Made by a program: the position numbers and the translations under genes. A stretch of DNA of 63,890 nucleotides, filler included, from Hausera hauseri (lineage: Eukaryota): NCBI GenBank assembly GCA_046269625.1. It is 11 parts of 11 records of this genome, joined end to end, with 100 filler letters (N's around TTAATTAATTAA, not from the genome) between each part and the next. Parts side by side here need not be neighbours in the genome. Positions count along the whole stretch, not along the records: positions 33,738 to 38,686 come from JBJURY010382258.1; 10 more parts are not named here. The stretch is one strand, 5' to 3'. This document shows positions 18,907 through 48,654 of this stretch, in pieces. Under the pieces are notes generated by a model. That model was not told the origin of the DNA. It worked only from the letters and a program-made list of their open reading frames with translations, and did not search any database. Position 1 is the stretch's first letter, and every line of letters begins with the position of its first letter.

Positions 18907-18913
18907 ATTATTA

Positions 18914-22011: not shown

Positions 22012-25000
22012 TTACGAACGAGGTTTCCGCTCGAGAACACGAGGTTGTACGTTTGGAATATCCTCACAACGACCTCGAGAGCGGGTAAAAGGGCGGAGAT
22101 CCATGACAACATCGCAATCGATGTCGGTAACATTTTGTTCCAGTCTTGGATTACCGCTCGTAATTATGGGACTAACCGCGATCGGAGAATTTCCACTGGT
22201 TCTTGGTATATTACCTGGAAAATTTTCTAAACCTTCAATCAGGTCTGGGAAGCCTTCGAAGTCCCCTTCTTCTTCTGTCACAGCTGGGAAACCTTCGAAG
22301 TCCCATTCTAAGGATTGAGTGGAGTCAATGGATTCCTCGTCAGAGTCTATAGAAAAGGTCTCCAAATCCACTATTTCCAGGAAACTAACCCTCCTGCGAG
22401 AGTCAGTGGGCTCCATCGGACTTTTTCTCGATGACAATATCGATGGAAACTTGATATTGTAATTACGCAGGAAAGTTGAAAGATCAGGTGAACCAGTGTG
22501 AGCCGAATCAACGGAAATCCTACTTCTATTGTTAATATAATTACTATTAACATCGCTAAATATAGTACTAGTCTTTGCAGGGCTTGTCACATCTATCGCC
22601 ACCGCCGTAAGTTGGCTGATGATGCGCAAGACATTTTGTATTTTTACCAAGGACGCCCGCGTTTCTTCGTCCAGAGAAAACCCCTCAAAATCCTCTTCAT
22701 CTGCCTCGATCGACAGGTTATTCGCGTGACTAGTACGGTTTTCCGTATCATAACCACGAGTTTCGATTTGTTCGATCACTGGTGGTGCTGTAGGTTCAGG
22801 ATCCACTCGGATATCCCGCATAGCCTTGGCATTGAATTCCTCATGATTCTTCAAATACTCAGGAGGAATCTGCCATCTTTTCAATTGGCTATGGTGTACA
22901 CGGTACACTCGATTATCCTGACGGGACTCAATCTCGTACGTGACCTTATTTGGGTTGACTTCTATTACTTCCAAAGGACCCAAATATCGTGGAAGTATCT
23001 TATTTGACACGAGGTCACCTGAAAATTGTTTCTTCATACCCACTAGGTCACCAACCTTGAAAGCGTTGTAAAGAGGATGCCCGGGTTTCCAGAAAGACTC
23101 GATATTCTGTACGGGAAGTTCGTGAGATAACTTATGGGCCTTCTCCATTATGCTCTCACACGGTGTTAATAGCGTTTGAGCATGCTGGGTATGGTTATAC
23201 GTAACCAAGATATGAGGTAATTCAATATCCCAGTTAGTACTTTTGCTTAATGAAACGCGCAAATATTGGAGCAGTGTTCGATTGACACGCTCAACCATCC
23301 CATTGGACGAAGGTTTATATGGCGTCGTTGCGACATGTTTAATATTATATTTATCTAGAACATTTTGGAATTCACTGCCCAGAAACTCCTTTCCGTTGTC
23401 AGACAATAAACGTTCGGGAAGTTTCGGCAACATGGGCAGGATAATACGTTGTAGAGCGGACGCGACGGTAACGGACTGCTTATTCCTTAACGGAACCGCG
23501 GATACCCATTTTGAAAAATGATCAACGAAGACCAATATATATTTATTGCCTAAACGGGATATCGGCATTTGCATTAAATCCACCGCGGTAAGCTCAAATG
23601 GACCAAAAGTTACTATTTTAAACATAGGTGGAACAACTAACAAATTAGATAATTTCGAAGTTTGACACAGGTAGCACGTCGTCGGCACGTCATGGCAAAT
23701 CTTGTATAACGACGGATGCCAAATGTGTCTATCCAATAACGCAGTTAATTTATTCCTACCTAAGTGCGCATACTCTAAATGACATTTAATTACCACGTCT
23801 ACGGCCAGTGAAAACGGTACTACATAAGGTACATGTCCTTTCGCTGTAGTTTTATTTAAAATATCATTATAAATTCTATAATCCCGCTTAAATCGTAGGA
23901 AGGACTTCAATTCCCGCGAGAGATAACCAGTTATCCTAGTGGGGCTTTTTACACATTTAAATAACTTCCTGATCGTTTTATCAGCAGACTGCGCATATCG
24001 GATTGTCTCTTCCGATAGTAAGGACCCCTCAAAAGGGATTTCCTCCTCCGCTAATTCCTCTAGGCGGATGCACAACGCTTCGATCGTTTCGGATACCGAT
24101 TTTGATATTAACTCCTCCCCACCAGACCCGTCTAACTCCTTATTTAGAAGGTTAGCCTCAGTCCCTTGGGAGCACTCACGTTCCTCAAGAGATTCATCCA
24201 GAAGATTAAAGGAGACAAAGTTTCCTTCAATTTCTAGATGAGGATATGGGTCCTGTGGTTCAATCACCACCGAATCTGGTGTGGTTCCCAGGAGTAAATC
24301 GTAATGAACCCCCCCTAGGCATAAAAGTCTACACAGTTTTTCACTCGTGGTTGGGCCGAATCTAAGCGGTTCTCCACTGCCGTAATATACCCATACCTGA
24401 GTGTGGTAAAGAGTTGCGAATGCTTGAATAGCTTCGGTAATAGGCATTTGTCCTTCCTGTTTCATTAATTTTAACAGTTTAGTAATGCCTATGTGATTTT
24501 TACCACTCAATATACCATACTTCTGTTTATGATCCAGCAATTCCTGGATTACCTCTTCCCGCAATTGTAAATGTTTGTCGGTGGTGCCGAATCTCCACAA
24601 TGCTAGGCACATGAACAGTGAGTCACCCCCTCCTGGAACTTTATGAACGAAGGAACCTGGGGGCAATCCTTCCTCCACAGGTGAAGGGAGCGTCTCGTGC
24701 GCTGCCACTGGGGATCGCGACAAAGCATCTGCGATGATATTCTGTCGACCCGGAATGTATCGTAGTTCGTAATCGATATCATTAATCTCTTCTAATGTCC
24801 GGGCGACTCTCTGATTAACTAGAGACATGCTATTCAGGAAGATAAGCGGCTTATGGTCAGTATGAATAATGACCTTAATGCCGTATAAGAATGGCTTGAG
24901 TGATTTTATAGCCCATCGGATAGCGGCAACTTCTTTTTCCGTGGTGCTATATTTTACCTCAGCTTTTGACCAGGTGGTGGAAATATAAGCAATTGGTTTG

Positions 25001-27159
25001 AGGTCCCCTTCTTGTTCTTGGGCCAAGCAAGCTCCCGCTCCTACATTGGAGGCATCGACGAACAACATGAGCGGTGGTGCTTCAGGCTGTCGATTGGGAT
25101 ACACTAGCAAGGTGGGATTTACCAGTTCTTCCTTGAGTTGTTCAAAAGCTGTCTGACAGTCCTGAGTCCAACTCAAAGTTTTCTTACCCAAAATCTCAAA
25201 TAATGGCTTAGCTATTTCCGAACACCGTGGTATATGTCTACGATAAAAGTTTACCATGCCAAGGAATTGTCGTACTTTTCTAACCGTAGTAGGTATCGGG
25301 AATTCTTTAATTCCTTCGATACTCTTTTGTAGTGGGATCATTCCCCGTTCCGAAACCATGTGACCAAGGTATTGAACCTCTTTTCGTAGCAAGAAGGTTT
25401 TACTTGGTTTGATTTTAAAACCTGTATTTGAGAAAGCAATCAACACCTTTTCTAGGCTCCCCAGATGCTCCTCAAAAGTCTTGCTAATTATGAGGACGTC
25501 GTCAAGGTATACCATGACTTCCGTCCATGGGATGTGAGACAAAGCGTATCTCATACCCCGTTGAAAAGTGGCTGGTCCATTTTTCACCCCAAAGGGCATT
25601 CTTAGAAACTCCCAATGAGATATAGGAGTGGTGAAGGCAGTCAGTTCAATGCTGTCTTCCTCCATTTCAACCTGATAATATCCTTTGACAAGATCAAGGG
25701 TGGAAAAATATTTCACTCCTTGCAGGCTGAAAAGCATATCTATGAGATTTGGGATAGGGAAACTATCTCCCTTTGTAATTTTATTCAACTCCCTGTAATC
25801 TATACATAACCTCATAGACCCATCCTTTTTCTTTATTGGAACTACAGGAGCGGAGTATGGGGATTTACTCCGTCTGATGATCCCTTCGGCTTCTAACTTT
25901 TTACAATTCTCTTCAACCTCCTTTAATATGGGGCCTTGCAGTCTACGGACGGGTAGCTGCACTGGATCGGTGTGAGTGACCTCGATCCGATGTTTGATGA
26001 CTGACGTGCATCCTACGTCGCCATCGTGCAAACTTAGAGCGTCCGGATACTTCATCAGGAGAGAGCGAAGCTGATCTTTTTGCTCCCCCGTGATGTCCGA
26101 ATCGTCTAACCTGAAGTCAAAGTTAAGTTTGGCTTCAGTCCATCCGGATTGTTCAACATCATCGGGAGTCTCGGCCAACTCCACGACATTGGCCTGGGCA
26201 TCGACTGGATCTGCCCATTCGAGTGTCCCGATCTGCTGACCCTTTTTGACTTTCAAATACCTTGACCCCTCATTATAGGCCAAGATAAATGCTCTATCTC
26301 CCCTAATTTTTACTAGTCCGCTTGGGGAGATGAACTTGCAATTCTCATTGCTAACAAATAATGGTAAGGTTGAAGAATTTTCACCCGCAAACTTAGGAAT
26401 TTCTATTTCTACTATTTTCCCTGAATACGGGCCTAGCGAAATAGCTTCGCCTAAATAGCAATCAATATTATTTTCATTTACCTCGCGCCGCGTATCAAAT
26501 GCTACCGTTTGAACGACATTACCGATACGCTTTACTAATTCGCGTTCTCGGGAGTCGGGTAACAAATGCTCATTGCTAAGAATATCGAATCCCATAATTA
26601 CATCGTGATGAGTGAGCTCATCGGGAATAACGATAAACGTATGAGAGTTTAAGGTAAATGTTTTGGAAAAACCTAAGTTCAAATCAAGTGCCCCTATAAT
26701 CGGGTACTTTACCTTTCCAATACCGCTGATGCTACGATACATCGTCGGTTTAAGGGGAAAGATATCGCAATTCAATTGCTCATAGCAACGGCGGGTAATT
26801 AAGCTAACTGTAGCCCCCGTATCAACAAAAGCGACGTATGACGTTTGTGGCTGTTCCACTACATGCACTTTAATTAATAGTGCTTCTGGCGAGAGTGTCG
26901 ATAATCCCAACTCGATGTTAGGTTGGTCATCTAGCTCGTCGTCCAGAGCGTTCACTACGTCTTCTGTTTCTTTTTCTTCTTGCGGCTTGTCTTGAAACGG
27001 ATCAAGATCAGCTGCCGTCAAGAAGGGATCGACTCTTAAGAGGTCTTGGATTATGGGAATCCTCTCTTCAATGGAAGATGATGGAGAGCCATCCAGTACC
27101 TCTTTTTGGATCGCTTCCCCTGAGCCGAGGTCTTCTGACTCAGAAGCAGCTAGTTTCCC
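22012..27159 (-). CDS. pol: Pol (via -1 frameshift): protease, dUTPase-like spacer, RT, RNase H, OTU-like domain, integrase, acidic tail
   Basis: Uninterrupted 1732-codon frame containing FVDTGA, LCIDYRELN, MPFGVKNGPATFQR, YLDD (25498-25509), FVDAS, TDHKPL, DALSR, VPGGGDSLF...HYD, HHCC zinc motif, VDL/SDNG/MVER DDE triad and YLGPLEV. Confidence 0.97.
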   Translation of the reverse strand, partial: GKLAASESEDLGSGEAIQKEVLDGSPSSSIEERIPIIQDLLRVDPFLTAADLDPFQDKPQEEKETEDVVNALDDELDDQPNIELGLSTLSPEALLIKVHVVEQPQTSYVAFVDTGATVSLITRRCYEQLNCDIFPLKPTMYRSISGIGKVKYPIIGALDLNLGFSKTFTLNSHTFIVIPDELTHHDVIMGFDILSNEHLLPDSRERELVKRIGNVVQTVAFDTRREVNENNIDCYLGEAISLGPYSGKIVEIEIPKFAGENSSTLPLFVSNENCKFISPSGLVKIRGDRAFILAYNEGSRYLKVKKGQQIGTLEWADPVDAQANVVELAETPDDVEQSGWTEAKLNFDFRLDDSDITGEQKDQLRSLLMKYPDALSLHDGDVGCTSVIKHRIEVTHTDPVQLPVRRLQGPILKEVEENCKKLEAEGIIRRSKSPYSAPVVPIKKKDGSMRLCIDYRELNKITKGDSFPIPNLIDMLFSLQGVKYFSTLDLVKGYYQVEMEEDSIELTAFTTPISHWEFLRMPFGVKNGPATFQRGMRYALSHIPWTEVMVYLDDVLIISKTFEEHLGSLEKVLIAFSNTGFKIKPSKTFLLRKEVQYLGHMVSERGMIPLQKSIEGIKEFPIPTTVRKVRQFLGMVNFYRRHIPRCSEIAKPLFEILGKKTLSWTQDCQTAFEQLKEELVNPTLLVYPNRQPEAPPLMLFVDASNVGAGACLAQEQEGDLKPIAYISTTWSKAEVKYSTTEKEVAAIRWAIKSLKPFLYGIKVIIHTDHKPLIFLNSMSLVNQRVARTLEEINDIDYELRYIPGRQNIIADALSRSPVAAHETLPSPVEEGLPPGSFVHKVPGGGDSLFMCLALWRFGTTDKHLQLREEVIQELLDHKQKYGILSGKNHIGITKLLKLMKQEGQMPITEAIQAFATLYHTQVWVYYGSGEPLRFGPTTSEKLCRLLCLGGVHYDLLLGTTPDSVVIEPQDPYPHLEIEGNFVSFNLLDESLEERECSQGTEANLLNKELDGSGGEELISKSVSETIEALCIRLEELAEEEIPFEGSLLSEETIRYAQSADKTIRKLFKCVKSPTRITGYLSRELKSFLRFKRDYRIYNDILNKTTAKGHVPYVVPFSLAVDVVIKCHLEYAHLGRNKLTALLDRHIWHPSLYKICHDVPTTCYLCQTSKLSNLLVVPPMFKIVTFGPFELTAVDLMQMPISRLGNKYILVFVDHFSKWVSAVPLRNKQSVTVASALQRIILPMLPKLPERLLSDNGKEFLGSEFQNVLDKYNIKHVATTPYKPSSNGMVERVNRTLLQYLRVSLSKSTNWDIELPHILVTYNHTQHAQTLLTPCESIMEKAHKLSHELPVQNIESFWKPGHPLYNAFKVGDLVGMKKQFSGDLVSNKILPRYLGPLEVIEVNPNKVTYEIESRQDNRVYRVHHSQLKRWQIPPEYLKNHEEFNAKAMRDIRVDPEPTAPPVIEQIETRGYDTENRTSHANNLSIEADEEDFEGFSLDEETRASLVKIQNVLRIISQLTAVAIDVTSPAKTSTIFSDVNSNYINNRSRISVDSAHTGSPDLSTFLRNYNIKFPSILSSRKSPMEPTDSRRRVSFLEIVDLETFSIDSDEESIDSTQSLEWDFEGFPAVTEEEGDFEGFPDLIEGLENFPGNIPRTSGNSPIAVSPIITSGNPRLEQNVTDIDCDVVMDLRPFTRSRGRCEDIPNVQPRVLERKPRS
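27110..27159 (-). promoter_or_regulatory. -1 programmed ribosomal frameshift signal (G GGA AAC plus downstream stem-loop)
   Basis: Heptamer GGGAAAC (27153-27159) sits immediately before the gag TAG, and pol is in the -1 frame. About 5 nt later GCTTCTGAGT...GCTCAGggGAAGC can pair. Confidence 0.85.
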
Positions 27160-28002
27160 GATTTCTGGGTGCAATCCACCCCCAAATGTGCTCCTTTGCA
27201 AATGGGGCACTGGGGCACTTCGTCACGTCCCTTATTAGGACATTCAGGAGCTATGTGTCCTTTCTCCTCACAGATTATACACTTCCGCTGGGCCACATAG
27301 CAATCCTGATGGACGTGCCCACGCTTTCCGCAGAAATGACAAAGGGGGCGCTTGCGACACTGCCCCATGTGATGGCCACGCTGTTTGCAGTGGCCACACT
27401 TCTGCGGAGATTGGGCCTGCCTCCTAGGCGGTGTCCTAGGAGGCGAAGCCGGCGGCGCTCTAACCGCTTGTCGCTGAATCTCCCGCTGAGGTTTGGGACT
27501 CGGCGGGGGAGTTCGCTTCGGGCTCTGAGTCGGTTTGTATTGAACTCTTTGGTTCATATTTGTATTATTCTTATTATTGTTATTTTTACTATTATTATTA
27601 TTATATCTATTATTATTTCTTTTTGGGGACTTAGGAGGAGAAGGTGGAGCCGTTGACCTCCTATAATTAGTATTGTAGTAAACGCTTTCCTTGGGTCGAG
27701 CCCCACGCACGGCATCCGCATATGATCGGGACTCTCCCTCTCCAATATAAGCAGGCATCGGTGGTCGTTCCCACCTTTGCGGCTCAATTGGAGTAGGTAA
27801 CGCTTGATATGCCTCCGGGTGATAATTTACCGTTGGGTTGGGCTGACCCCAACGGTTTTGACAATGACAATGGTGCTGTGTGTTACCCCTTGTGGGTGCC
27901 ACCATTGTCAAGTCAATGATCTCAGGTACGGCCTGAGAACCATTGACGGAGGGCATATTAGCGTCGACCAGGGATACGAACTGTTCCCAGGTCATACGGG
28001 AC
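27150..28002 (-). CDS. gag: Gag, C-terminal part with Pro/Asn-rich linker and four zinc knuckles
   Basis: CGHCKQRGHHMGQC, CHFCGKRGHVHQDC, CIICEEKGHIAPEC and CPICKGAHLGVDC. Ends KSGN-TAG. Confidence 0.92.
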
Positions 28003-28198
28003 CCCATGGTGTACTCGTGGTTTCTACGAGCATTTTCCACATAGAACCTTACCGGCGTTGGGATACTAGCCAGGAACCTNNNNNNNNNNNNNNNNNNNNN
28101 NNNNNNNNNNNNNNNNNNNNNNNTTAATTAATTAANNNNNNNNNNNNNNNNNNNNNNNNNNNNNNNNNNNNNNNNNNNNCATTGTGAACATACGTATT

Positions 28199-28600
28199 TA
28201 CATGGTGTTGCCGAGAAACAGTTGTCCGACGACTCGTCCGAACAATTCCGCTAGTGAATACACTATAGATTGGAACAATCCTTTGGATTTATTTGCTGGA
28301 CAATAGAGGTTGCACTGACGGAATTTAACTTTCTCTACGCACCGGTGACATTGAAAGGCAGTATGAAAATAACGTACAACAAGACTTTTACTGAAACCAA
28401 AACACATTTTTGTCCTCTGACACTTACTAACAATAAAATAACAGTTGGAGAATCGGGCTTTTCCACGACCAAAGCTAATTACAGTATATTCGGCAAGATT
28501 GATGTTTTCATTTTAGATCAAAACTTACATTTTATGGCAGATTTTGAATTTACTGTCACTGTAGTACCTGAAATGTGGTTGCACTGGAGGGATTAGCAAA
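28199..28600 (+). pseudogene. Polinton/Maverick (adintovirus-like) minor capsid/penton N-terminal remnant
   Basis: YMVLPRNSCPTTRPNNSASEYTIDWNNPLDLFAGQ*, then after a frameshift EVALTEFNF. This matches the LPSN...N..S.Y...L.L.G.WEVAL.E signature. Confidence 0.7.
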
Positions 28601-29999
28601 CTGGTGAGAAGGTTTTTTCCTGGCGATTTCTCACTGATAATGGTCAAAAAATACAGATTATAGCACAGATAAAAATAAACGTTCTGTGAAATTTTACCGC
28701 ACTACCATAGCTTAAGAAGAGACAACCTAAGATAGACAGGATAATTGTTTCATCAAAATAAATCTCAATTATTCACACAATCCCAATCCATTTAACATTA
28801 ACAATTGATTGCAGATAATTTTTGAAGTTTAAAGAATAAAATTATTTTTGCAATGCGTTTGCTTTTACTCTACCCAATGTCGGTGTTATCGCTGGAACGA
28901 CATTGTTGTCACAAGTACCAGCGTCATTGTTGGCTTTAAGTCTCAGATTTTTATCATTTCAAAAATAGCTGTTATATCATTGACATAGTTCGGATGGTCT
29001 TGTTGACGCTGATGTGAACGGCATTATTCATGTTGGTTGAGATTTTCAGCAGATTTAGTTTTGACGATAATTTAACCCGTAAGAGGAATCAAAATTTAGA
29101 AAGTAATGTCAATACTGTTGACAATAATCCCCGAGAATGTCGAAATCAGTGTGGATATTACTGCGATAAAATTAGGCGTCAGCAGGCTTAGTGGATCCTA
29201 ATTGAACTTGTAACTTGGACCTTTCAAAAACAATATTGTTCATATTGAAAATTATAGTATCAATACTATAAAGTATTCGAATGAATTTTCATATGAAAGT
29301 ATTGCATTGTACCCTACAGAAATAAAAGACGTCAAAACGTTATCCGTGCATTCGGAGTTCATTCTGTATCTTGTCTTACTTCGTAGTCTGGGCAAAGATA
29401 CACATCAATTAGAAAATCATTTGAAAAGACAAAAGTTTATAATATGTAATTTTCTTGATAGAAAGCTGCAAATTAAATAGTACAATATTTGATTGTGTGC
29501 AAATCCCGACACACCTAAATGTAACCTCACCGACCGACTATCAGATGCACTCGCTGCTGTCGTCAATAAAGCCGAAACAACCGATTTTTCGGACTCGATC
29601 ATGTCTATTATTCTCCTGACACCGTGGGAGTATTTGAACCTCAGCGAATTCTAGGAAATCGTCAATAAGGATAATCCAATCGAGAGAACATGTCACATTT
29701 GGCAAAATCCGGCAGACGACTTGCCATCAGAGACATTCAGACATACGTTGGTGAGATTCATTTTGCTGATTTGAGCCCACCAGTGCGATCATTTTATCAC
29801 TACTCCCGGGGCGGCACGCTCAACCCTCTTCCTAGCCCAAGCGAATACCGCCCAATCCCCCGCGAACACAATCCTTTTCCTCATATTATCTCAAAGCAAT
29901 TTTTTTCTTAATAACTTTTTTCAATAGCCAGCATATAAAACCATAGTATCTACACTCAACGACACAGCACAGCTTTTATACAACTCTATCCTCCTTATT

Positions 30000-32900
30000 T
30001 AATACCTTAGATTTCTATCTCATATATCAAGGTCTTATTATACATCCTTCCGATTCCCTTTTACTGTTCATATGTCACCAATATTCGATCATCCATTTCA
30101 CGCTCCACTTCCGCCTTTGCTGTTGATGGGACGCAAATCCATCTTTCTCGGATTATAAATCTACAAATACATGCAATATCTATCGTTTACCAAACTCTCA
30201 ACAATCACGAGCTTTGATAAATCTACCTTGTGTGGAATTTTGCCTTGATAAAAACAATTCCATTAAACCATGGCTCCAATTCTACCAACAGTGATTAAAA
30301 TCTAACAACTTTACTGACTCTTTTGTGTGAGCCAACAATATTTTAATTCTTCTGCCTGCTAACGTTAAGCACCAGATCAGCAACATTTCCAAATTGCTTC
30401 AATACTCGACACCTGTACTCCATATCACGGATCCTTCTATAGACAATATTATATAAAAATATTTTAACGACCAGGCGATAGGAAACCAAAAGCCATCCGA
30501 TTTTCTCCAAACGGCTGTTTTGCACCTTAGCGCCTTAGGCGTAACACCTACAAATAACGCGGATTTAATTCGCGTTATTTCTTGTCATCTTTGCCCATCT
30601 CAATTAGAGCCTTGCTTACCACCGTCGACGAGACTACGGCTATTGAAAAACTGGCCATAATGGCTGATAAGTCCTTTGGAATCTTCCATACAACTAAATC
30701 TCCCCCAACTGCGGCTGCAACCACACATGCGCTAGCTACAGACGTAGCATTCCTCACTTAACAATGGCAAATGATTCAACACCAATTTGACACAATACAT
30801 CAGTCAATTTCGGCCATTACTACCCAACTGAACAATCTTAATGGGCCGCGGCGAAGCGAAGCCAGACCTTCAAGGGAGCGAAACACTTCAAGACACTCTA
30901 CGCGATCAATTTCATCTGGCGGACGCATGGCCTGCTTCTATCCTACGAGGTTTCGGAAGGATGCAAGGAAATGTTTTATGGGCAGCCGGTTCTACAGCGA
31001 ACCATACGCTGTGGACAACCCTATTTACATTTACCACAATAAGTTTCAGTCACAGGCCAGATCATGCGTGCTTGGTTGCAAATATTACCAAAATAAATCT
31101 CTTCCTTTGTCCTCCCCTTCTTTTTTTCCAAATCCTTCAAAAAACTAATAACGCTGCCAGATTACACGGCATATTCTGGTATAGGCACTACATCGCATTC
31201 CTCTGGCCGTCTTAATATGACCTCTGCTCTCTTTTTGTTAAAATCTGCAATCTTCTCTGACAATTCATCAAATATAGACTTTCTCATTGACTCTGGAGCA
31301 ACCTTTTCCCTTTCCTCCATCTTTCGCTCCAACGTCCAACAATTTTTCTTCGCCTCAACTCTTCACAGCCAGTGGGCAGCCTTTACGCATTGTTGGCACC
31401 ACAGAGCTAACTTGTACCTTCAATCACTTACCAGACATGTTTGTTTAGAAGTTCTTCATTGCTAACATAAATTCACCAATAATCGGCTCGAATTTCTTGA
31501 CGGCACACGATCTATTGGTAGATTGTAAATACGGCTGTCTGCTGCGCAAGAACTCAATTGCAAATCCAATTAAATGACTCACAGACAATCTAGCGAGCAA
31601 TGCATTGCACCCCTCTGTAAATATGTTGAACGGCTCGTCAACTATTGACAAAACTTTCGATAAAGTCCGTATTCCTTCAATTATGAATAACAATTACAAA
31701 CCTATTTTAAAACAAAAATCTAAATTGGGCATTGACAGTGGTAATGTCAGTTGCTTTACGTCAATTACTGCAACTGTTTCTTCCTATAACATGCCTCAAC
31801 TATTCTTATCTCTGGACTCCATTCTTAAATCATACATCACAACGTCTTGCTTTTGCATATTTAAAAGGGACATCAACTTCAAGCCTCCATCCTGAACTTA
31901 TCATCACATAGTAATAGAGCATCAGAGGCCTATCAAACAAAAAGTCAGACCCTTGTCTCCACACAGACGTAAAGCTATGGAACAGGAATTTAATGAACTT
32001 GAAAAGTCTGGCATCATTCGGAGATCAAATTTACCTTAGGTTTACCCTCTTCATGTTGTAGCAAAGAAAGATGGTACTTATAGGCCATGTGGAGACAATC
32101 GCCAATTAAACAACTTGACTATTACAGATGCTTATCCACTGCCACTAATTAGGGATATCCTTCATAGCCTCAATAACACCAATACCTATTCTACCATTGA
32201 CTTGCACAAGGCCTATCATCAAATTCCTGATGTACCTGATGACATTCCAAAAACTGCTGTCATCACACCATTTGGCCTTTATGAATACATCTTTATGCCT
32301 TTCGGCCTATGTAGTGCATCTCAGACCTTTCAATGCCACATTGACACCGTTCTCCCGGGTCTTGATTTTGCTCACCCATATTAGTCGCTTCCTGATCCAT
32401 CAAACAACATCATGAGAACCTTAGAATTATTTTCCACAGATTGCATAAAAAGAATCTGAAAATAAATTTCGCCAAATGCAATTTCTTCCAGAAACGCGTC
32501 AATTTCCTAGGCCATATAACTACTCCCGAAGGTCATTCGCCCCAGTGTGATCGCTTACAACAATTGAAAAATGTGACATTACAAAATACTACCACCAATA
32601 TGAGGAGTTTTCTAGAAACACTGCACTTCGTATACAAATACGTGCCACACTGCTCCGAACTAATGTCACCTTTTGCACACCTCTCATCGGGTAAAAAGCC
32701 AATTAGTCCACTAAACTCCCGATCTAGTAAACTATTTTGGTCGTTTTTGTGAAGGTCTGAAAACCGTTGAAATCTTGATTTTTCCAAAGCCAAACGCGGA
32801 ACTGATATTAACTACCGATGCCTCAACCACAGCCAATGGTGCAATATTACACCAAATATACAATGGTGTAGACGAGCCATTGGACTTCTATGCCTAAAAG

Positions 32901-33637
32901 CTCACGCAACCGGAAAGCCGATACTCAACGTTCGATTGGAACTCCTGGCCGTAGTTCTAGCGGTAAAGTATTTCAAGCATTTTCTTCTATTACGTCAATT
33001 TACCATCCAAACCGACCACAAGCCTCTACTTCATATAATGACGTTAAAATAGACATCACACAGACAAGAACGACAGATATCATACATGTCGACATTCAGT
33101 TTTTTCATAAAATATATTTAAGGCACTGAAAATTTAGTAACAGATTTTCTGTCGTGGTCTGTCAACTCAATTACAGTTCGGCCAATTTTCTCCTCTGAAG
33201 TCCTGAGAAGTAATCAGCCATCTTCTGATATTCTCCAAACTTTAAAATCGGTTGAGATCATCGATGGCATCGCCTACGACACATCCAACTAGACTAATAA
33301 AAAATCATTCTTGCTCCATCGCTACAAAAGACAGCTTTAACGTATTTTCACTCTTTATCACCCGGATTAAAAAGCCATATTTCGTCTACTGAAACGCCAC
33401 ATTATATGGCCAACTATGTGTACAGATGTACAAATCTGGGTTAAGAGATGTGCAGCACGCCAGCAATACAAGGTCCTCAAACACCTTATACCACCACTTT
33501 ACCACGTCCCTCGCACATTTTGTTTTGACACTGTTCATTTGGATCTTGTCGGTCCTTTACTATCCGATAACGGCTATCAATATATCTTATCCATGACGGA
33601 TCGCACTTCTTGCTGGCCTGAAGCCGTTCCGCTTCGA
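30000..33637 (+). pseudogene. Decayed Ty3/Gypsy gag-pol, same family as 1039-4309 and 54523-56063
   Basis: Gag remnant ending SKN* with slippery A AAA AAC (31139-31145). Pol motifs FLIDSGA, KKDGTYRPCGD, TPFGLYEYIFMPFGL, TDASTTA and VHLDLVGPL, with many stops and frameshifts. Confidence 0.9.
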
Positions 33638-33737: not shown

Positions 33738-35420
33738 TATCCAGATATGACTAAGCCATTCATATTGGCAACGGATGCAAGTGATTATGGAGTAGGAGCG
33801 GTATTATCACAAAAAGATGAAGATGGTAGGGAACATCCAGTTGCTTATGCCTCGAGAAAATTAAATGAACATCAAATGAAATATGCAATTATTAAAAAAG
33901 AATTATTGTCGGTAATATTTGCATTAGAAGTATTCTCATCGTATATTAGTGAAAATAAACCGTTGGTAGTTAATACAGATCACCGACCACTGCAATGGTT
34001 AAAGAAACATGAAAACCCGAATAGTATATTACTACGATAGGCACTAAAACTCCAGCCATATACATTAGATTTCTAATATAACCAGGTACGCGAAATGCGA
34101 ACGCGGGTTATTTATCAAGATTACTACAGGAAAAAGGAAAAGGGGAAGTTGTAGCGGCAATGTGGCGCATGGATGGATCCATAAAAACACAAAGGAGAAC
34201 CAAAGGAAAGATGAAGAGATAAAAGCAATAAGGAGTTTTATTCAAAATAAAATAGTACCTAAGGATAGAGAATTAGCTCGTCACTTAACCAGATTTGGAG
34301 ATGCTTATGAAGAAAAGGACGGATTTTTGTATTATATTCACCAAATGGACCAACATTAATAATTCCAAAAAATAGAGTTGTATTATTAACTCAATACCAC
34401 GATGGATTACTAGGCGGTCACCAGTCGGAAAGAAAAACAATAAATAAGTTGAAAAGGAAATATTTCTGGCCAACTATAACTCAAGATATTCCAAACTGGT
34501 GTGATAGTTGTAAATTATGCGCTACTCGAAAGAATACCGGATCCAAATTTAAAGCTCCGCTAAAAGTTTGGGACAATCCCTTTGGTCCATTTGAATTTAC
34601 CGCAATGGACATAACCGGACCTTTACAACTAACAAGAAATGAAAACCGGTACATTCTCGTGTTTATAGATTACTTTATCCGATGGGTCGTTGCAGTGCCC
34701 ATGCCAGATATGAAAGCAGAAACGATAGCTGAAAAATTTGTAGAAAATATAATATTTAATTATGGAGCTCCTCAAATCCTGTTAACAGACCAAGCATCTA
34801 ACTTAACCGGTAATGTAATGCAAGCAATATACGATATTATGAAGATTTTAAAATTGCGGTCTACTCCGGGACATCCAAAGAACAATGGAATGGTGGAAAA
34901 ATACATAGGAGATCTGAAAGAAAAACTACAAACGGTAGTTAATGTATGACAGGACAACTGGGATAAGTATATTAATGCGTGTGTATTTGTAAATCGAACG
35001 TCTGTACATGAAGCTACCAAAGAAACACCTTTTTATATGATGTATTTAAGAGATGCTCGGTTACCAATTGATTTGGATTTCCACGTACGACCTATATCTC
35101 AGTTGATGGAAGTAGAAGAATAAAAACAATTAATGCAAGAACGCTTACAGCTAGCGTACAAGATAGTGAAGGACAATCAGAAAGAGTACAAATCGACGTA
35201 CAAGAAATATTATGATGAGAAAACTAAACAACCCAAGATTAAAGTTGGAGACAAAATGATGTTGTATATACCAATAAATAAGAAAGGTAAGACATCCAAG
35301 TTGGATAGACCGTATAAAGGACTGTATGAAGTAGAAAAAGTGGATTTACCTCATACATGTTGAAAGACGAATAATGGTAGAATTAAGGTACATGTCAAGA
35401 GGTGCAAAGCTGTGCCTAAG
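33738..35420 (+). pseudogene. pol: Decayed Gypsy RNase H-integrase (element F)
   Basis: PFILATDASDYGVGAVLSQ, TDHRPL, MDITGPL, LTDQASN, NNGMVEK and RPYKGLYEV. Confidence 0.92.
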
Positions 35421-36969
35421 GAAGACGAATTAAGAAATGACAAACAGAAGTTTGTACGGGCCATCAATTATAAAAGAAGTAATAAAACTCCAAAATATGA
35501 GGTATTTAAAGGTCTCCGTCTATTGATGGTTATAGTGATACCATGTTTACTAGCTTATACAACAAAACCACCTGATCCATGGATGAGAACATTTCCTTCA
35601 AATGAAACGCTGGAAAATAGTCTGATGAAAAGTATTTATCTTGAGATAACTTATACAAGAAAATGTCAAACTTTTATAAGATTCACGATATTTGACAGGC
35701 TACCCAACCAGTATATGATAGGAATTCAAGCAATTCATTAGCACGATTACAAACGAAGTCCGAAACAACGAAAATATGACTGCGGTCTCACTTATTGGAG
35801 AAATACTACGAATTGTATAGTAGATGAATCTGGCAATTATCTCATGTACTATACATTGATCAAGAGACAGAAGAATAGTTATCAATGGCAGTATACAAAG
35901 TGCCGAGGTATCATACAAGTTCCTAATAGACGGACGAAGAATGCAACCAAATTAGACAAAATGATAATAACCCAACTCACCGTTAAGTCCATGGGACTTA
36001 AAAGCGGATGAAGTTGTATTGAAATTAGAACAATTATAAAGTTGGAAGAAAACAGAGTAATAAGCGTAAAACTTACGGACGTACAAAAGAAACAAAGAAC
36101 GTCAACAAAATGCCAGTTGACCCACAGGCACTCTCGAGTCTGCTGTAAGGCCTTACAAGGAGGAAACTGATTTACAATTTATATTAGCATGAAAAGATCC
36201 AGAGAGCGTTAAGACTCTAATTCACCAAGGGCCCAGAGTACATGTTCCTATCAAAAATGCTATTAAATATGACGACGACCAGCAATCAAGTGTCGCGACA
36301 CCTTGCAGATCCTCCACTAGTTAATAAAATAAAGACAAATGTTGGAAAAATGACCACGTCGTACCTTATCGTCACAAACGTTCTGTCTTGGAAAAGGTCA
36401 CAGTATCTTCCACACTTACTTCCTTAGTCGTAGCTATTCAACCCGATTTAAACTTCTATAAAATTAAACTTATCTGTAAGTTAGGTCAAAAGATAATAGT
36501 GAAAGGCATAATCACGCCAGATGATACAATAGTGCCGTGCGCCGGCCTAAGTCCAAATACAAAATATACCGTTACACTGCAACTATACGGCGACAATAAC
36601 ACAATGATTGTTACTAAGTCGCTGACAGCCTCGACGAAAAGTAGAACGCACCAAAAAGTAGAAAATAAAAAAATGAGTACAAGCTTAAATATAAAACCAC
36701 TACCGAAAGCAAGTTATACTTATTCCCGAGTAGAATTAATAATAATATTGACTGTATGCCCCATAATATTAGTGATTGTGTTAGTAATCATAAGAATAAT
36801 TATTTACCTACGAAAACGTCCCAGATCAAATTTGATTTGGATCGATATGCAACCCATATCGAACATACTAGACAGACAACCCCAGTTGACGGTTATTTGT
36901 AGGGATTGCTGTATATGCAACCCCAGACGCAGAGATAACCCACTGTTATCTGGTTACCTCCCTATATAA
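35412..36969 (+). pseudogene. Env-position type I membrane protein remnant (signal-like segment, FN3-like domain, TM); starts in frame with integrase
   Basis: GLRLLMVIVIPCLLAY hydrophobic segment. FN3-like VTVSSTLTSLVVAI...FYKIKL...GLSPNTKYTVTLQLY (about 36390-36640). TM LIIILTVCPIILVIVLVIIRIIIYL followed by RKRPR. Confidence 0.65.
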
Positions 36970-37076
36970 ACTTTATCAGAATAGAACCACAACGATTACC
37001 AAAGTGAGGTGTATGATAACCGTTGTGTTGTGTTTAAGTACCATTTTTACAAATACATTGACTATTTCATTTCTAG

Positions 37077-38323
37077 TATCCGCATCGACGCTACATCAAA
37101 TTTAATCGGTCACCAGATCCAAGCATTGGTATAGCAATGCAAAGAATCATCTTATCAACGCGAATTCAAATAATCAGTATCATGTGATTCATAACGAATA
37201 TACCATCAGCCTGAATTACCCACAGACACAACAGATTCAAAATAACCTTAAATGTTACAGTATGGCAAACAGATCACTAGCCCTACTACAAATAACTAAA
37301 CCAAACCCATTTTATATTACTGACATTATCTTCCTCCCAGATCACTTTCATTCAATAAATGTCTATTGTATATCTGGGCAATTCCATATTAAAACTACCG
37401 ATACAAAAACATTGATAAAAGGAGACTTAATCAATATGGACCCAGAACACGGTCTAGCATTTGATTTCACTTTTATCAAAAGCATCACGTTAAAAAATCG
37501 ATCTCTCACGAGTCGAATAATGTTTGCCTTTAAGGTAATAAAGAAATAAAAATTTCTACCCAGCTTACCAGAAGGAAAGTGCTTCAATCTTTCAGAACCG
37601 GAATACATCAAATATAAAATGATCCCATACAGAAGAATTGAAAAAGTTTCTAATGAAGATTTGATCACAGCCGCCGTGAACTTAGCGTATGACCAGTGGG
37701 ACCAATTGCAACCAATTGAAGTCTCAATAATAACTCTCAACGTAAATACCCTTTTTATGGTACCATTACCCCGAGGCAAAGAATTAACAACTTTGATACA
37801 CATTTAACGGGCCTCGCTGAAATAAACATTAACAACCAAATCGATTCTATGGATTTCCACCGGAAAGTAACTAAAGTAATTACAGATAAGATAGTCATTG
37901 GAGTCGACGTAATGGAAATGATAATCAATCATTTCAAATGCCCTATCAGGCGGATCGCCGGAGTTCACGATATATTATATCACGAAGAGGTGATCCGCAA
38001 ATACCAATTAACTACGAGTACACATAAAGAACTTGCTCGGAAATTCTGATACCAAAGGATTTCTCCTTGGTAGTACTGCTCTGATGCAGTGTTATCAATC
38101 GATCTGCCACAAGTTAAAATGGAATGACGAATTCATCACACAAAGCACGGCCTCTGACAGTGTGCGAACAGCACCAACAGCATCATTGTGCGGCAGAAAA
38201 CGCAAGTTCCACGTAGATGAAACGGTGGTCATAGATGACAAAATTTACGAACCAGAATCCATACTGTATAAATCAAGATCCTCCGATAAATTGATTCTCA
38301 TGCGCCTGTCGCTCGATCAATAA
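37077..38323 (+). pseudogene. ORF4 remnant: unknown domain plus REX4/ISG20-like DEDDh exonuclease fold
   Basis: IHNE...IQNNLKC...NRSL is shared with 46573-47319. Across one frameshift: AAVNLAYDQ...IEVSIITLNVNTLFYGTITPRQRINNFDTHLTGL...VITDKIVIGVDV. Acceptor-like TTGACTATTTCATTTCTAG ends at 37076. Confidence 0.6.
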
Positions 38324-38786
38324 ATTCGGAACAATTTCTCTAAACCCCCGGCGAGTTTGGTAGTCGGTTTGTTAGTCCATTTGAGACTATTCAATATAAC
38401 AATATACGTCGCCAGCAATATATGTCTCCTACAATATAACAATATGTCGCCAGTGTCATTATGATTTTTTGACTATTGCGATTCCTCATTACGATCTTTG
38501 TAGCCATCATGATTTTTTAATGACTATTTTAATGTCGCCCATGCATGTCGTTTATTTTATTCATGATAGGTGGGATATTTCATTGTCTATGTTAATATTT
38601 TATGCTTAGGTGGCTATTAGTTGATTGCATGACGAGAACTTAAACTACTATATAAAGTAGTAGTATTTTGAAAATGGTTAGTTTTCNNNNNNNNNNNNNN
38701 NNNNNNNNNNNNNNNNNNNNNNNNNNNNNNTTAATTAATTAANNNNNNNNNNNNNNNNNNNNNNNNNNNNNNNNNNNNNNNNNNNN

Positions 38787-42879: not shown

Positions 42880-44970
42880 AAGCAGAATTGAAATTAAATC
42901 CGAAGAAATGTAAATGGGGTCAAAACGCCGTATTCTACCTTGGCCATGTAATAGGAAAAGGTGGATCAAAACCAGATAAATCACTACAGAACAAGATATC
43001 AAATTGCACGGAGCCGAAAAATCAGAAAGAGTTAAGACACTGGCTAGGGTTATGTAGATAATACGCCACATATGTGCCAGATAATTCGGAGATAAATTCA
43101 CCCTTATATCGCTTTCTTAAGAAAGGAATTAAATGGGGATGGGCAGACGTCGAATAGAAAGCTTTCGACGAAATGAAGAAGATATTAACAAGTGAACCAA
43201 TTTTACAATACCCGAACTTCCACTTATCCTTTATAATCAAGATAGATGCCAGTAATGAAGGTATTGGATATGAATTAGCGCAGAAAAGAGAAGATGAAGA
43301 ATTAGAACACCCAATTGCTTATGAAGGACGTTCCTTTAAGAAGGCCGAGAAAAATTATTCCGTTGCTGAATTAGAAACTGTATCAGTAAAAGAAGAGCTT
43401 CGAGACTTCAACGTTTACGTGTACGGGCAGAAAATTATATTTGTCACTATCATGAAATCGTCCCGATTTAAGAAAACGAGCAAACAATCCGACATGCAGA
43501 CTTAACAAATGGATCGAAGAAATCACAATATCGAATTCCAGTATAAGCCAGGAAATAAACATGTAGATGCCTACGCACTATGAAGACTAAAGACCAGAAC
43601 AAGTGCAATCACTGTAATGATGAAAAATCAGCTTGAAGAAATAATAGATCGCCAAAGCACCTTAACGTTGGATAAAGCCATTAAATCCTCAATCGAACAA
43701 AGAAAGGATAGAATCATCTAGCAGATTATAGAATTTGCCGAGAAAAACCTAATACAAAAAGGACGACAATTAAAAAAACATTTACTCAGACACGGATATA
43801 AATACTGTGTCTTTAATGACCACAACAGTGGAGACATTTTGTATTACGAACGAAAAGAAAGAAAATTAATAGTCATCTCAAATAACTTACACTCCGAGGT
43901 TTTAATGGCGGAACACGACTCATATTTAGCAGGGCACATGTCGTAGAAAAAGGCGCTGGAAAGAATATTAAATAAATACTTTTGACCCAGTATCTATATT
44001 AATGTGAAGAATTGGGTAAATGCTTGTGAAGTATGTGCGACCAAACAAAAGAAGACAAAGAACTACATGGCTGAATTAAAACCAGTCAATGTACCTGATA
44101 GACCGATGCAAACTTTGTCGGTGGATATTGTAGGACCTCTTCCTATGACCAACAAAAACAATAAATATATCTTAACTTGTATTGATCGACTAACTCATTT
44201 TGTCGAGTCAATAGCGCTAGCTGATCAGAAGGCAGAAACTTTGGCCAAAGCTGCAGTAAGAAGAATCATTTGCCGATATGAATCCCAGACCAAATATTAA
44301 CAGATCGAGAAAGAAATTTTACAAGTGAACTATTCGAGTAGATTACCAAAATATTCGAAATCGAACGGTTTGCTACTACCGCGTATCACCCTCAGTGCAA
44401 TGGAATGGTTGAACGAATAAATGCAACTGTCATACGCATTCTACAAACAGTAGTAGGTAAGCGCCAAAACGATTGGGACGAATTTTTAAAAGGACCTCAA
44501 TTTGCAATTAATGCCACCCCACATCCGGCAACAGGATTTACTTCATTTTTATGATGCATGGAGGTGAAGCTGTGTTACCCAAAGACTTAGGAATGGCGCC
44601 ATACGCAGTCAATCCCGAAGATTTAAAACAAAACTTCGCGGAAGTATTACAGGCGCGGTTAGAAAAATGTTGGAAAATCTCCAGAGAGTTATCTCAAGAA
44701 TATCAAGAACAGTTCAAAAAGCAATATGGTAAGAAAGCGAAACCGCATGATCTAGAACGTGGAAATAGGTTTCATGTACATTATTTAGTAGCCGCGAAAG
44801 GCACGTCATTAAAACTGACACGTACAAGAAGAGGACCATACGAAGTTACTAGAGTTATGCCAACTACAGTGTATATCAACAAGAATGGAAAGGAAGAGGC
44901 CGTATCAGTACAAAGAGTTGTTAAGACGGAGATACGGCCCAATAAACATTATAATTTACGACAACGCGAG
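42880..44970 (+). pseudogene. pol: Decayed Gypsy RT-end/RNase H/integrase (element H)
   Basis: FIIKIDASNEGIG, VDIVGPLP, AYHPQCNGMVER, RGPYEV and HYNLRQR. Confidence 0.92.
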
Positions 44971-46383
44971 ATAAAAACTTCCTCAATAATTGTTAGACCG
45001 ATATCATACATTAAGACAGTTTTAGCACTATCATTAATTGCTTCTTCCATCCCAAGAACATAAACCCAATGGTGGGACGATAAAATTACGCTCGGAGATG
45101 TATACGGAATTCGGAAGAGCGGATTAAAACCGAAAACCGCCGTTACAGAAAGGAAGCCGACGGCCGAAGAGATCAAAGGCAAGAAGACACTGCCTTGCAG
45201 CAATCGTTGAAGGTTTATTATTTTTCACCGGATGCTGTGTGTGTGAAATTTAAAACTTGGATACCGCATCACAAATTCGGAAGATTTCAGATGGTACTAA
45301 ATGATGTAACAACAAAAGGAATGAGAATATGTGACTTTGAACACGGAGATTATACACAGTACTGCGACATAGACTGTGGACACGCCCAATCCTTACGTAT
45401 CGACTGTATTTACCAGACTCATCAGAAGTCTATCGAAACAAATCTCCAACTTTAGTTATTTATCCCTGCTTGATGCATATAATTTGAAGTACAGCTAGAC
45501 AAAATACTACAATCTACCAACCCAAACATGAGACTATTACATAAAAATATTAATAAGATCTCAGTAAATAAAGAAAAACAATGCATCCAACTGGATGCTC
45601 GAACAGGATTAACTTTAGTTCAGTAAATTAGTATTGTTTTTGAAGCAGTAGATGGAAGAACTACGAAAATAAAATACTGTTCTGTTCATGCTGGTGTGCA
45701 ACATCCGTGGTGTAGGCTGCCAATATACCAAGAATTCAAAATAAGGATTAACTTATATGAAGTACAGACGAATAAATTGAGCAAACACTTGCGAACTTAT
45801 TACCCAGAAAATAGAATATGGAAGATTTCAATAGAAACGACAACCAAAAGGGCGACCACTCAAGTTAATACCATTACGAAAACCGTTGCATCAAGCAGAA
45901 TGCCTAAAGGAGAATTAGAATGTATACCTGTTATATATTCGCACATCGATTTAGGATTCTGTTCTTTGTAGAAGAAAAACTAAACTACCACATACTAAGA
46001 ACAACGTATAATAATCAAACTGTAACACTACTTAAAAATACTTACCAGACAGAAAGCAATTTATTAAATCCACAATCCAATTACATAGTACGAATATATG
46101 CCAAACAATTACATTGAGAACACTAGATGAAATTCGTGCAGAATCGCATATACACGAAAACATAAACGATGAAATCACGACTCCAGTCACCACACAAGCA
46201 CCAATAGGATTAACCACATTTCCAATCGTATCAATTATTATACAATCAACGTTTGTTCTCATCATATTAATTGCCATTTTCCACTTAGTTGCCAAAAATT
46301 TTTATTCTAAGCGTCCTAAAATTACGGCATGGAAACTAAGGGAATTGGAAAACCCCGTTGATCCGTATAACAGAATAACTTGA
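44970..46383 (+). pseudogene. Env-position membrane protein remnant (signal-like segment, FN3-like domain, Thr-rich stalk, TM); starts in frame with integrase
   Basis: ISYIKTVLALSLIASS, then FN3-like NYHILRTTY...LLNPQSNYIVRIYAK, then TTPVTTQAP, then TM IVSIIIQSTFVLIILIAIFHLVA followed by KNFYSKRPK. Confidence 0.6.
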
Positions 46384-46572
46384 CAATTACAGAGCGGATT
46401 ATTCTGTTATTGGTTCTATTTTGGAAACCATTTATGTTGTAAACTGCCAGTAAACCGGAAATTCAAAATAAAATTTGACTTATATGAAGTGCGTTCTAAC
46501 AAACCTAGTATACAGTTACGAACTTATCCCGAGAATAGAATAAGAGTATTGTTTATTTTTCAGATATGAAAC

Positions 46573-47700
46573 ATGGCCGAACGACGTAGCATCAACGAAC
46601 CAAGTGAAGATATTGTGAATTGCCGACGTAGTATCGAAGAATTCTTTCAGGAGTATGCAACCGTCCTTTTATTGAAGTCTAACTCTATCTATCGAGAAAT
46701 CCACAATGAATTGCATGGGAAAGCGGCTGTAAAATACGATCAAGTCCATATGATTCCGAATAACCTGAAATGCGTCACAGAAGAAAACAGGATCCTCTAT
46801 CTCTATGCCATGAGGGAAGATAGAGATGCCAGAGCATACTCGATTAAACAATTAATAGTTTATGAATCTGCTCGAAGCGTGCACATACATCTAGCAGATG
46901 GCGAACAATATTATCGAATTCGAAATCAAGAATGGAATACAAACAACGGAAGACAATATAGGTTCAGCACCCTCAATTTGCGAAGTGAAGATTTACAACT
47001 GTACGAATTGGAATTCCGAGTAGCCGCTGTTCCTGTCAAAATAATGTTTGAAATGACTTGTGATGAACAATCCCATGCTCCGTTGCCGCCCTTAAAATTT
47101 CAGCCAAAGTCGTCAGAAAAAGAGTTAGAAAATTCTTTATACTCATATAGATTAGTGTCAGATGTCGGAAATGTAAGAATTATAGCTGTCAATTGCGGAG
47201 AAGGGAACGATACGGAGAAAATTCCGATGGAAGTCTCAGTCAGAGAAACAAATGGAATGGAAACGTATCATACAATTATTAGCCCGAGGAAGCGTGTCAG
47301 AGAGACGTATTACGATTAGACCGGAATTCGTAAAGAAACCGTTAGGAACGGAAAAGATGTTAGGATCGTGCGAACAGAATTAGAACATTGTCTTTACGGC
47401 TACATCCTTGTCGGATATCGCGTAGAAGAAGTTATAATCCCATTGGAACTCTCCTATTTGAACCTCGCAGGAATAAGAGAACTCGGTACGCACCCAGTTA
47501 TTGCCGAACGGATAAAGAAATTATTACGGGACAGAGACTATCCCATGACGAAAATCATGGACGCTTATTTCAAACTAGTAATAGATGCCATGAGTGATGG
47601 TCGCTCCAAGGTCAGTAAACTGCTAACAGCGAGCCAACGCACCCAATACCTCCGAGATATTTAAACAGGATTAAAGTGGGAGCACGAATGGGTTCCTAGT
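46573..47700 (+). pseudogene. ORF4: unknown domain plus REX4/ISG20-like DEDDh exonuclease fold; in-frame stops at 47317-47319 and 47662-47664
   Basis: RIIAVNCGEG...MEVSVRETNGMETYHTIISPRKRVRETYYD*TGIRKETVRNGKDVRIVRTELEHCLYGYILVGY aligns with REX4-type ALDCEM...RVSIVN..G..VYD.YVKP...V.DYRT.VSGIR...L..G.....V..EV...L.GRILVGH. Acceptor-like TTTATTTTTCAG ends at 46563. Confidence 0.68.
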
Positions 47701-48654
47701 AACCCTTCACGCAACTTATGTAGTTCTCCGAACCCAGACGGAATAAGTAAAAAGTACCGGCAACAATATCAACCATAAAACTATCGAAATTACGGAAACA
47801 GAGAGTTTTAGAATAACCGTACCCCAAACTGTCTTAAATGAACTACCCGGTACCAGCTACGAAAATTCCGGAACATCAACAAAAGAAATAGCCAAAAGCA
47901 CAATATTCAAGATTCCCCAAATTCCGAAAAAAAGCAAAAGGTTGAACTACCAAATCAGAAACCAAAAAATAAACTTTCCCTCTATGATTACATATTTAGG
48001 AAAACCCATAAAATGGCAGTTCCGCCGAAAACCCGGAAGACGCCCATATATCAAGAGAAAACCCATTAACAACAACCAGTCAGCAGTAATCAGGACCCAG
48101 AATTCTACGGACGAATCCAGACGGTTCACGGAAGGGAATGTCCTCAGAAATAGACACACACCAGGAAATCAACATTTCGCAAGAACGGAAGATCAACCTA
48201 AGATGTTAGTAACGACAGAGCACTACAGTCATGGGAAAATCAAGGAAGCAATGTTTTTTTCTTAAAACCACGCCCAAAAGGGAAGTGTATGAAAATACCT
48301 ATATATGGGAGAACCTCAAATTAGGGAAGTATGTGGCGTCGATTTTTCAATCAAAGAGGAATGGTAAGCTTTCAATACCCGTAGACAGACAAATAAAAAT
48401 CCTACTAAAAAAGGAATATCAAAAGTACCAGACGGAAAAGAAGGTTCCCGATTTAGACCGCGAAATGTTAGCAGATTGGATCTTGGTAACAGTACGTTAT
48501 GACTCAAAAAAAGCTCAATAGACCCCAGGCAAAAGAGGATTCACGGATATCTATNNNNNNNNNNNNNNNNNNNNNNNNNNNNNNNNNNNNNNNNNNNNTT
48601 AATTAATTAANNNNNNNNNNNNNNNNNNNNNNNNNNNNNNNNNNNNNNNNNNNN

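Follow-up and report, generated by a model that had tools for sequence, protein, structure and literature searches.

The genes known from the env position of animal Ty3/gypsy retroelements encode F- or gB-type viral fusogens or small FAST-like proteins. Here we describe two Ty3/gypsy elements, S6 and S8, that carry in this position a surface protein outside the F, gB, and FAST classes. The elements lie in a 63,890-nucleotide (nt) stretch of Hausera hauseri DNA (assembly GCA_046269625.1; hereafter the window), which comprises 11 short contigs with N-linker spacers between them. S6, the main finding, is the contig at 33738–38686 (JBJURY010382258.1), and S8, the second element, is the contig at 42880–48554. 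Both contigs start within pol, and gag and the protease are absent from both. Judging from its gene content, the host is probably an animal whose genome is rich in repeats. S6 and S8 are decayed copies of old, repeated elements that have a cassette of two genes after pol: a membrane-protein gene and a further open reading frame (ORF), ORF4.

The Env-bearing Ty3/gypsy elements known as errantiviruses resemble S6 and S8 in having a Ty3/gypsy pol followed by a gene for a glycoprotein with a signal, an ectodomain, and a transmembrane (TM) segment, and in occurring as genomic repeats; in S6 and S8, unlike errantiviruses, the ectodomain is based on fibronectin type III (FN3) domains and a further shared ORF follows (PMC13524379). 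In its main text, the survey of these elements reports only F- and HSV/gB-type fusogens (Chary and Hayashi, PMC13524379), and the terms "fibronectin", "FN3", and "immunoglobulin" have 0 occurrences there; because F and gB baits were used, the survey would miss an FN3 gene. Atlas virus and nematode belpaoviruses share with S6 and S8 a glycoprotein in the Pol frame, there within a single Gag-Pol-Env polyprotein, whereas Atlas virus is a BEL/Pao element with a phlebovirus-like class II fusogen (PMC9094657). The sORF2/FAST-like proteins of the Drosophila MDG1 group are, as here, non-Env membrane proteins of a long terminal repeat (LTR) retrotransposon in which a basic patch follows the TM segment, and provide a precedent for envelope-independent spread by means of a membrane protein (PMC11952523). 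FAST proteins have about 100–200 residues, and most sORF2s have a myristoylation motif (PMC11952523), whereas the S6/S8 protein has about 470–490 residues, a signal-like segment, and FN3 domains. The third ORFs of bdelloid LTR retrotransposons are likewise non-canonical captured genes after pol, including genes for small TM proteins; the types described are F-like Env, GDSL, DEDDy, coiled-coil, and small TM, and "fibronectin" occurs 0 times in the accessible text (PMC5408684).

Among cellular proteins, FNDC9/FNDC5, cytokine receptors, CD45-type phosphatase ectodomains, and taeniid EG95, an FN3-like, anchored, and probably adhesive host protein (PMC4836691), combine FN3 with a membrane anchor as here. 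These proteins differ in being host-encoded, and the likeness of the S6 FN3 domain to them is at the level of fold only (10–21% identity). No FN3 gene in a retrotransposon was found in the literature searched, the scope of which left out subscription papers, Repbase, and supplements; "fibronectin" appears only as a tissue marker in the accessible text of the OVEX1 paper (PMC2717909) and only within a reference in the Cer1 paper (PMC3315495).

The S6 membrane gene and its link to pol

The S6 contig starts in the RNase H of a Ty3/gypsy pol (33741–34079; Pfam RT_RNaseH E 1e-33), with gag and reverse transcriptase (RT) missing; all features given here for S6 and S8 are on the plus strand. The integrase (34311–35411; stops at 34947, 35121, and 35361) comprises an H2C2 zinc finger, a core, and a C-terminus that we take to be GPY/F-like (Pfam Integrase_H2C2 E 3e-18, rve E 5e-11), and also matches the PFV and Ty3 integrases. 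S8 contains the RT end, RNase H, and an integrase with a GPY motif, with frameshifts (42882–44985; Pfam RT_RNaseH_2 E 5e-28, Integrase_H2C2 E 1e-13, rve E 3e-7). Both elements show the Ty3/gypsy order RT–RNase H–integrase with an H2C2 finger, the RT end being present in S8 only. The S6 and S8 integrases are 37% identical across 124 residues and are each other's best partners within the window (score 245 vs 149 and 118).

In S6, the frame of RNase H and integrase, which contains both 35133 and 35412, has no stop between 35364, which falls within the GPY/F-like region, and 35738, and so spans a hydrophobic segment before the stop at 35739. The signal-like hydrophobic segment (35502–35558) is preceded by basic residues and has a core at 35520–35555 with a 12-residue Kyte-Doolittle mean of 3.1. 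In S8, the corresponding frame (44512–45063) likewise runs without a stop from the end of the integrase into a signal-like segment, and there is no ATG in 44900–45070. The signal-like calls in both elements rest on hydropathy and the open frame, not on a signal-peptide predictor. Beyond 35739, the S6 integrase frame continues with stops at 36009 and 36168; a frameshift lies near 36168, and the part encoding FN3 and TM is then in another frame to 36969, with stops at 36190, 36322, and 36325. Stop counts compared with expectation over 2000 shuffles reveal strong depletion on both sides of the frameshift (2 stops in 268 codons vs 20.5 expected for 35364–36167; 3 in 266 vs 17.7 for 36169–36966; each 0/2000 shuffles), indicating that the membrane gene, about 490 codons from signal to stop, is decayed coding sequence. 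The first-pass annotation of the window had proposed that the integrase frame runs into a signal-like segment followed by a decayed ectodomain, and both proposals are borne out. The membrane genes of S6 and S8 are A-rich like pol (A 36–39% vs 39%), which fits long residence in the element, and have no visible introns.

The ectodomain is probably made up of two or three beta-sandwich domains, a refinement of the earlier annotation with its one FN3 signature. The first part, D1 (35607–35930), is beta-rich by eye, contains a C-x10-C pair, N-glycosylation sequons at 35601 and 35802, and the stop at 35739, and is not matched to FN3 by hhalign beyond shuffles (7/40). The second part, D2 (35955–36260; stops at 36009 and 36190, frameshift near 36168), is a probable FN3/Ig-like sandwich with a weak hhalign match to FN3 (E 0.2, 0/40 shuffles). 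A furin-type site, RHKR (36370–36381), is present in S6 only, directly ahead of the third part, D3; such a motif is not rare by chance, with an estimate of about 1 in 5 for 400 residues.

D3 (36382–36642), the membrane-proximal part, is an FN3-type beta-sandwich of about 90 residues with the signature GLSPNTKYTVTL at 36544–36579. A model of the FN3-TM ORF, predicted from single sequence, has a beta-sandwich (six strands assigned) and a TM helix, with a coil stalk between them. The D3 fold matches fibronectin with a VIA Z of 9.4 and a root-mean-square deviation (RMSD) of 2.4 over 85 aligned residues. Specifically, 29 of 48161 chains match with Z of at least 8, those listed being nearly all FN3-bearing and fibronectin topping the list, and all fold matches are 10–21% identical. 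Foldseek ranks FN3 domains and monobodies highest (best E 0.003), and sequence methods agree: hhalign matches D3 to FN3 (76%, E 2.2e-5), and in a phmmer search of the PDB the top match of the FN3 domain is fibronectin (E 0.013). The ESM Atlas groups the S6 ORF with FNDC9/FNDC5-like proteins that have FN3 plus a TM segment (0.95, 179/256 features), its top clusters being FNDC9/FNDC5 (0.95–0.93). A full HMMER search of 1.84 billion proteins with the FN3-TM ORF gave four matches (best E 1.7e-7), of which three carry Pfam fn3; the fourth is an unrelated repeat protein. A 53-repeat FN3 profile scores 19.0 bits at 36505–36618, the next best of 2550 six-frame windows scoring 5.5, a result that is not independent because the profile was built from the three proteins found with the S6 query. 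The ORF (36328–36969) does not reach the gathering cut-off of Pfam fn3 PF00041 (13 bits vs 25, E 0.13). A strand-B tryptophan is a feature of FN3 domains and is absent from D3.

The TM helix of S6 (36727–36813; core pLDDT 94–96, hydropathy 3.6) is followed by a basic stop-transfer sequence, RKRPR (36811–36825), and a tail of about 50 residues with a Cys cluster, ending at 36969 (stop at 36967). The first-pass proposal that a type I membrane protein with FN3 occupies the env position is supported. The FN3 signature and the TM segment with its stop-transfer stand as annotated, and to them is added the frame change near 36168, of which the earlier annotation made no mention.

Comparison with known classes sets this protein apart. 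From hydropathy and the model, it has the signal, ectodomain, and C-terminal TM segment after pol that characterize F-type Envs. It does not have their furin site with a hydrophobic fusion peptide: in S6, no F-type fusion peptide is present because the residues after RHKR align as FN3 strands, and in the scanned ectodomain frames of S8 there is no R-x-x-R. In place of the head and helical membrane-proximal stalk of class I proteins, S6 has a beta-sandwich and a coil stalk; in place of the five-domain hairpin with fusion loops of gB, two of the three parts of the ectodomain form small sandwiches, each separate, that match FN3/Ig; and at about 466–490 codons the gene does not have the size, or the small ectodomain with amphipathic motif, of sORF2/FAST proteins. 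WSXWS and a long signaling tail are features of class I cytokine receptors; WSXWS is absent from the S6 and S8 translations, and the tails have about 50 and 35 residues. Pfam and PHROGs yielded no F, gB, or retroviral Env family on the pieces, and a viral structure library yielded none at E 0.001 or better, absences that are weak for decayed pieces. The first-pass annotation saw no baculovirus-F/errantivirus Env motifs, and the view that the protein is not an F-type fusogen is supported.

S8, ORF4, and the repeat family

The membrane gene of S8 (44986–46383; 466 codons, with several stops and frameshifts) encodes a signal-like segment in the integrase frame, D1, D2, a Thr-rich linker, D3, a stalk, a TM helix (46225–46281), and a basic tail of about 35 residues. 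Folding of 45183–45830, with stops entered as X, gave a seven-strand sandwich for D2 (45549–45800; pLDDT 42–70). The structure matches of this sandwich are led by a DUF3244 Ig-like domain (Z 7.4), followed by IL20R2 and fibronectin (Z 6.6), with none at Z 8, and Foldseek gives monobodies first. In D3, an FN3-like motif (46058–46108) is matched by hhalign (E 0.013, 0/40 shuffles) and reaches 2.9 bits, rank 5, with the 53-repeat profile. An FN3/Ig-like domain is likely in S8, less firmly than in S6. D1 as a further FN3 domain is unsupported by the model, by hhalign (7/40 and 35/40 shuffles), or by a PDB profile search. Between the stop of the S8 membrane gene and the start of ORF4, 46435–46542 is a 73% identical copy of 45708–45818, the second half of D2.

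The order pol–signal–beta domains–TM–ORF4 is common to S6 and S8. ORF4 of S6 (37106–38323) is soluble-looking, stop-depleted, and spread over three frame pieces, with a basic patch, GRKRK, near its end; ORF4 of S8 (46573–47780) keeps to a single frame for about 400 codons (3 stops vs 26.2 expected, over 402 codons). The two are 22% identical over 214 residues (E 1.8e-5). Of 48 pairs compared between S6 and S8, three were reached by no shuffle, namely two ORF4 pairs (z 12.6 and 5.6, each 0/300) and the stalk-TM pair; the stalk-TM-tail similarity (z 4.4) is in part compositional. As weaker hints of kinship between the ectodomains, C-x10-C occurs twice per element (p 0.028 and 0.034), and three D2 cysteines of S6 and S8 fall on one diagonal (85/2000 shuffles; MAFFT finds the same register). 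From sequence comparison, the post-pol region appears to be one inherited cassette, for which the homology of ORF4, missed by the first-pass annotation, is the strongest evidence.

ORF4 has no segment of TM strength (best 19-residue hydropathy 1.2–1.4), and nothing usable on its family came from Pfam, PHROGs, the PDB profile search, or the ESM Atlas. It has basic patches near its end in both elements and may act as a regulator in the nucleus or as an adaptor of matrix-like type. A chromodomain-like look at 38235–38310 of S6 was not confirmed. In S6, a moderately hydrophobic run at 36980–37105 lies in the ORF4 frame before a stop at 37103 and has no counterpart in S8, and 30 related contigs have loose ends ahead of 36985. 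In S8, two basic low-complexity frames (172 and 102 codons) lie after ORF4 at 47747–48554, with no Pfam match at E 0.01; they could belong to the end of ORF4 or form a fifth gene.

The cassette belongs to a repeat family, as related contigs cover pol, membrane gene, and ORF4 alike. Specifically, the public run X1 contains 53% of S6 words and places 6027 contigs on S6, of which 3242 are less than 90% alike; 30/30 bins are covered. Summed depth is 188–18558 across pol, membrane gene, and ORF4 overall, with 322–7898 in the membrane gene, 188 at the integrase-signal junction, 291–2440 over most of ORF4, and 87 at its end; beyond 38358 it is only 15–26. Most related contigs differ from S6 at the breaks at 34947, 35739, and near 36167, and these breaks therefore look like private decay. 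The low cover beyond 38358 coincides with a T-rich 3′ stretch, LTR or flank (38358–38686; 41% T, TATA-like motif at 38649), and no purine run of at least 9 is present within 38300–38686.

Relatives outside this material were not found. Word-indexed protein searches confirmed none of 463 candidates among longer proteins for the FN3-TM ORF, none of 293 for S8 ORF4, and none of 588 for the integrase at E 1e-20, and locus scans of viral and metagenome contigs confirmed 0/3, 0/61, 0/136, 0/207, and 0/13 pattern matches; these blanks are weak because the collections are poor in animal genomes. No RNA data sets sharing S6 words were listed.

Other elements and genes in the window

Further decayed gypsy elements lie at 1–5175, 28180–33637, and 54523–56192, the first two clustering in the integrase tree (96/97); neither a comparable membrane gene nor an ORF4 turned up in any of the three. 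An apparently intact gypsy element (17867–28079), on a contig with 77-nt identical ends, has a pol of 1736 amino acids (22015–27222, minus) and, after pol on the same strand, a 491-codon ORF (20423–21898) with no Pfam match, the N-terminal half of which we take to be GDSL/SGNH-like. The contig 10380–17766 also has a 77-nt terminal repeat; it contains transposase pieces (16492–17096), presumably Tc1/mariner-like, and an intronless NIF/FCP1-type phosphatase ORF (14365–15261, minus; Pfam NIF E 1e-15). Elsewhere in the window are a fragment of a protein-only RNase P (PRORP; 57488–57991, minus; Pfam E 3e-11) and an intronless ORF that encodes a RING finger at its C-terminus and a Cys cluster at its N-terminus (62828–63889, minus).

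Possible roles of the membrane protein

We lean toward an FN3 surface protein that is linked to Pol and serves attachment or adhesion without being fusogenic, a plausible reading that we stop short of calling probable. In this model, gene 1 of the cassette would encode a type I membrane glycoprotein of about 470–490 residues, with an internal signal in the Pol frame, two or three FN3/Ig-like domains, a stalk, a TM segment, and a short tail. The protein would be released from a Pol-linked precursor by signal peptidase, for which Atlas virus offers a parallel (PMC9094657), or would be made from spliced RNA. It would then reach the cell surface or a budding membrane and hold particles, or the element-expressing cell, to a target cell, for example of the germ line. 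Such a protein would itself be unable to fuse membranes, so transfer would depend on uptake, on contacts between cells, or on a different fusogen. In this sense an FN3 protein may substitute for the envelope, as the first pass suggested.

Several observations weigh against this reading. The FN3 fold suits adhesion and ligand binding equally. Model confidence is low, with a mean predicted local distance difference test score (pLDDT) of 54 for S6 and 40 for S8; D1 of S8 did not fold (pLDDT about 22), the best Z of the S8 sandwich, 7.4, is within the range that the tool calls common, and C2 domains follow close behind the monobodies among its Foldseek matches. The recurrence of the layout, first annotated at 44970–46383, holds for the order of parts (44986–46383, TM 46225–46281) and not for ectodomain sequence, where the alignment of S6 with S8 is not significant (229/300 shuffles for the main pair; 59/1000). 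That the layout is a lineage trait rather than a chance insertion, as also claimed, is favored by the two diverged elements and the repeat-family cover, whereas a 5-row integrase tree does not settle whether S6 and S8 form one clade. No paired LTRs are visible on either element. No X1 contig links pol to the FN3 part, because the longest listed are 308–429 nt, and X1 is one study, possibly of the source sample; its depth is not a copy number.

A receptor mimic or decoy would account for the fold as well: a captured, tail-truncated FN3 protein like a cytokine receptor or phosphatase receptor, with no part in particle entry, that would bind a host ligand or receptor, or shed D1-D2 by furin, and so dampen defense or alter the host cell. 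Viral decoy receptors are an established strategy (PMC5998005), and the tandem disulfide-bearing sandwiches (C-x10-C twice per element, p about 0.03 each), the IL20R2, TSLP receptor complex, and gp130 among the fold matches, the short tail, and the furin-type site at the S6 domain boundary are all in keeping with it. We nevertheless regard it as unlikely, since WSXWS is absent, the D3 list is topped by fibronectin rather than a receptor with all matches 10–21% identical, S8 has no furin site, and the env position and Pol linkage suit a particle-related role. The first pass suggested a captured receptor or an adhesion-like protein; capture from a particular host receptor is not sustained, as no close cellular donor of the FN3 gene was found among 1.84 billion representatives.

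It is rather improbable that only ORF4 is ancestral and that the membrane genes are independent host FN3 captures, or passengers that play no part in spread. In favor of this reading, the S6 and S8 ectodomains cannot be aligned and the clade is not settled, FN3 membrane proteins are common in animals, and retroelements often swap third ORFs (PMC5408684). Against it are the position, the length (about 490 and 466 codons), and the order of domains that the two genes share, the three D2 cysteines in register, the partly compositional stalk-TM-tail alignment (z 4.4), and the element-like composition without visible introns or a close cellular donor.

There is a slim chance that the gene encodes a new kind of entry protein, in which D1-D2 would bind a receptor and the furin-released D3-TM, alone or with ORF4, would fuse membranes. 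The env position, Pol linkage, signal-ectodomain-TM layout, and tail Cys cluster would suit such a protein, the S6 furin-type site would give a split like that of surface (SU) and transmembrane (TM) subunits, and the unfolded D1 leaves room for an unusual domain; however, the residues after the furin site align as the first FN3 strands and not as a fusion peptide, no long helix lies ahead of the TM segment, and ORF4 has no segment of TM strength. We know of no FN3 fusogen. An artefact or chance neighborhood (a collapsed assembly, or a host gene beside a pol fragment) could be read into the short contigs and the lack of a bridging contig and is barely credible given two separate contigs with the same order and diverged sequence, a junction frame open in both, and cover of all bins.

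Returning to the Pol-linked attachment or adhesion protein, we tentatively propose that S6 and S8 belong to an old Ty3/gypsy group whose env position holds a glycoprotein of a third class. This protein would be linked to Pol, contain several FN3 domains, resemble an adhesion protein or receptor, and derive from a cellular gene; co-inherited with an undescribed accessory protein, it would serve cell-to-cell passage without a viral fusogen. If this is true, such elements can fill the env slot with a fold known from cellular adhesion proteins or receptors, and no fusogen is required there. The FN3-TM ORF and ORF4 provide two baits for tracing the group in animal assemblies, and these baits also serve the question of how retroelements gain access to the germ line or influence the cells of the host.

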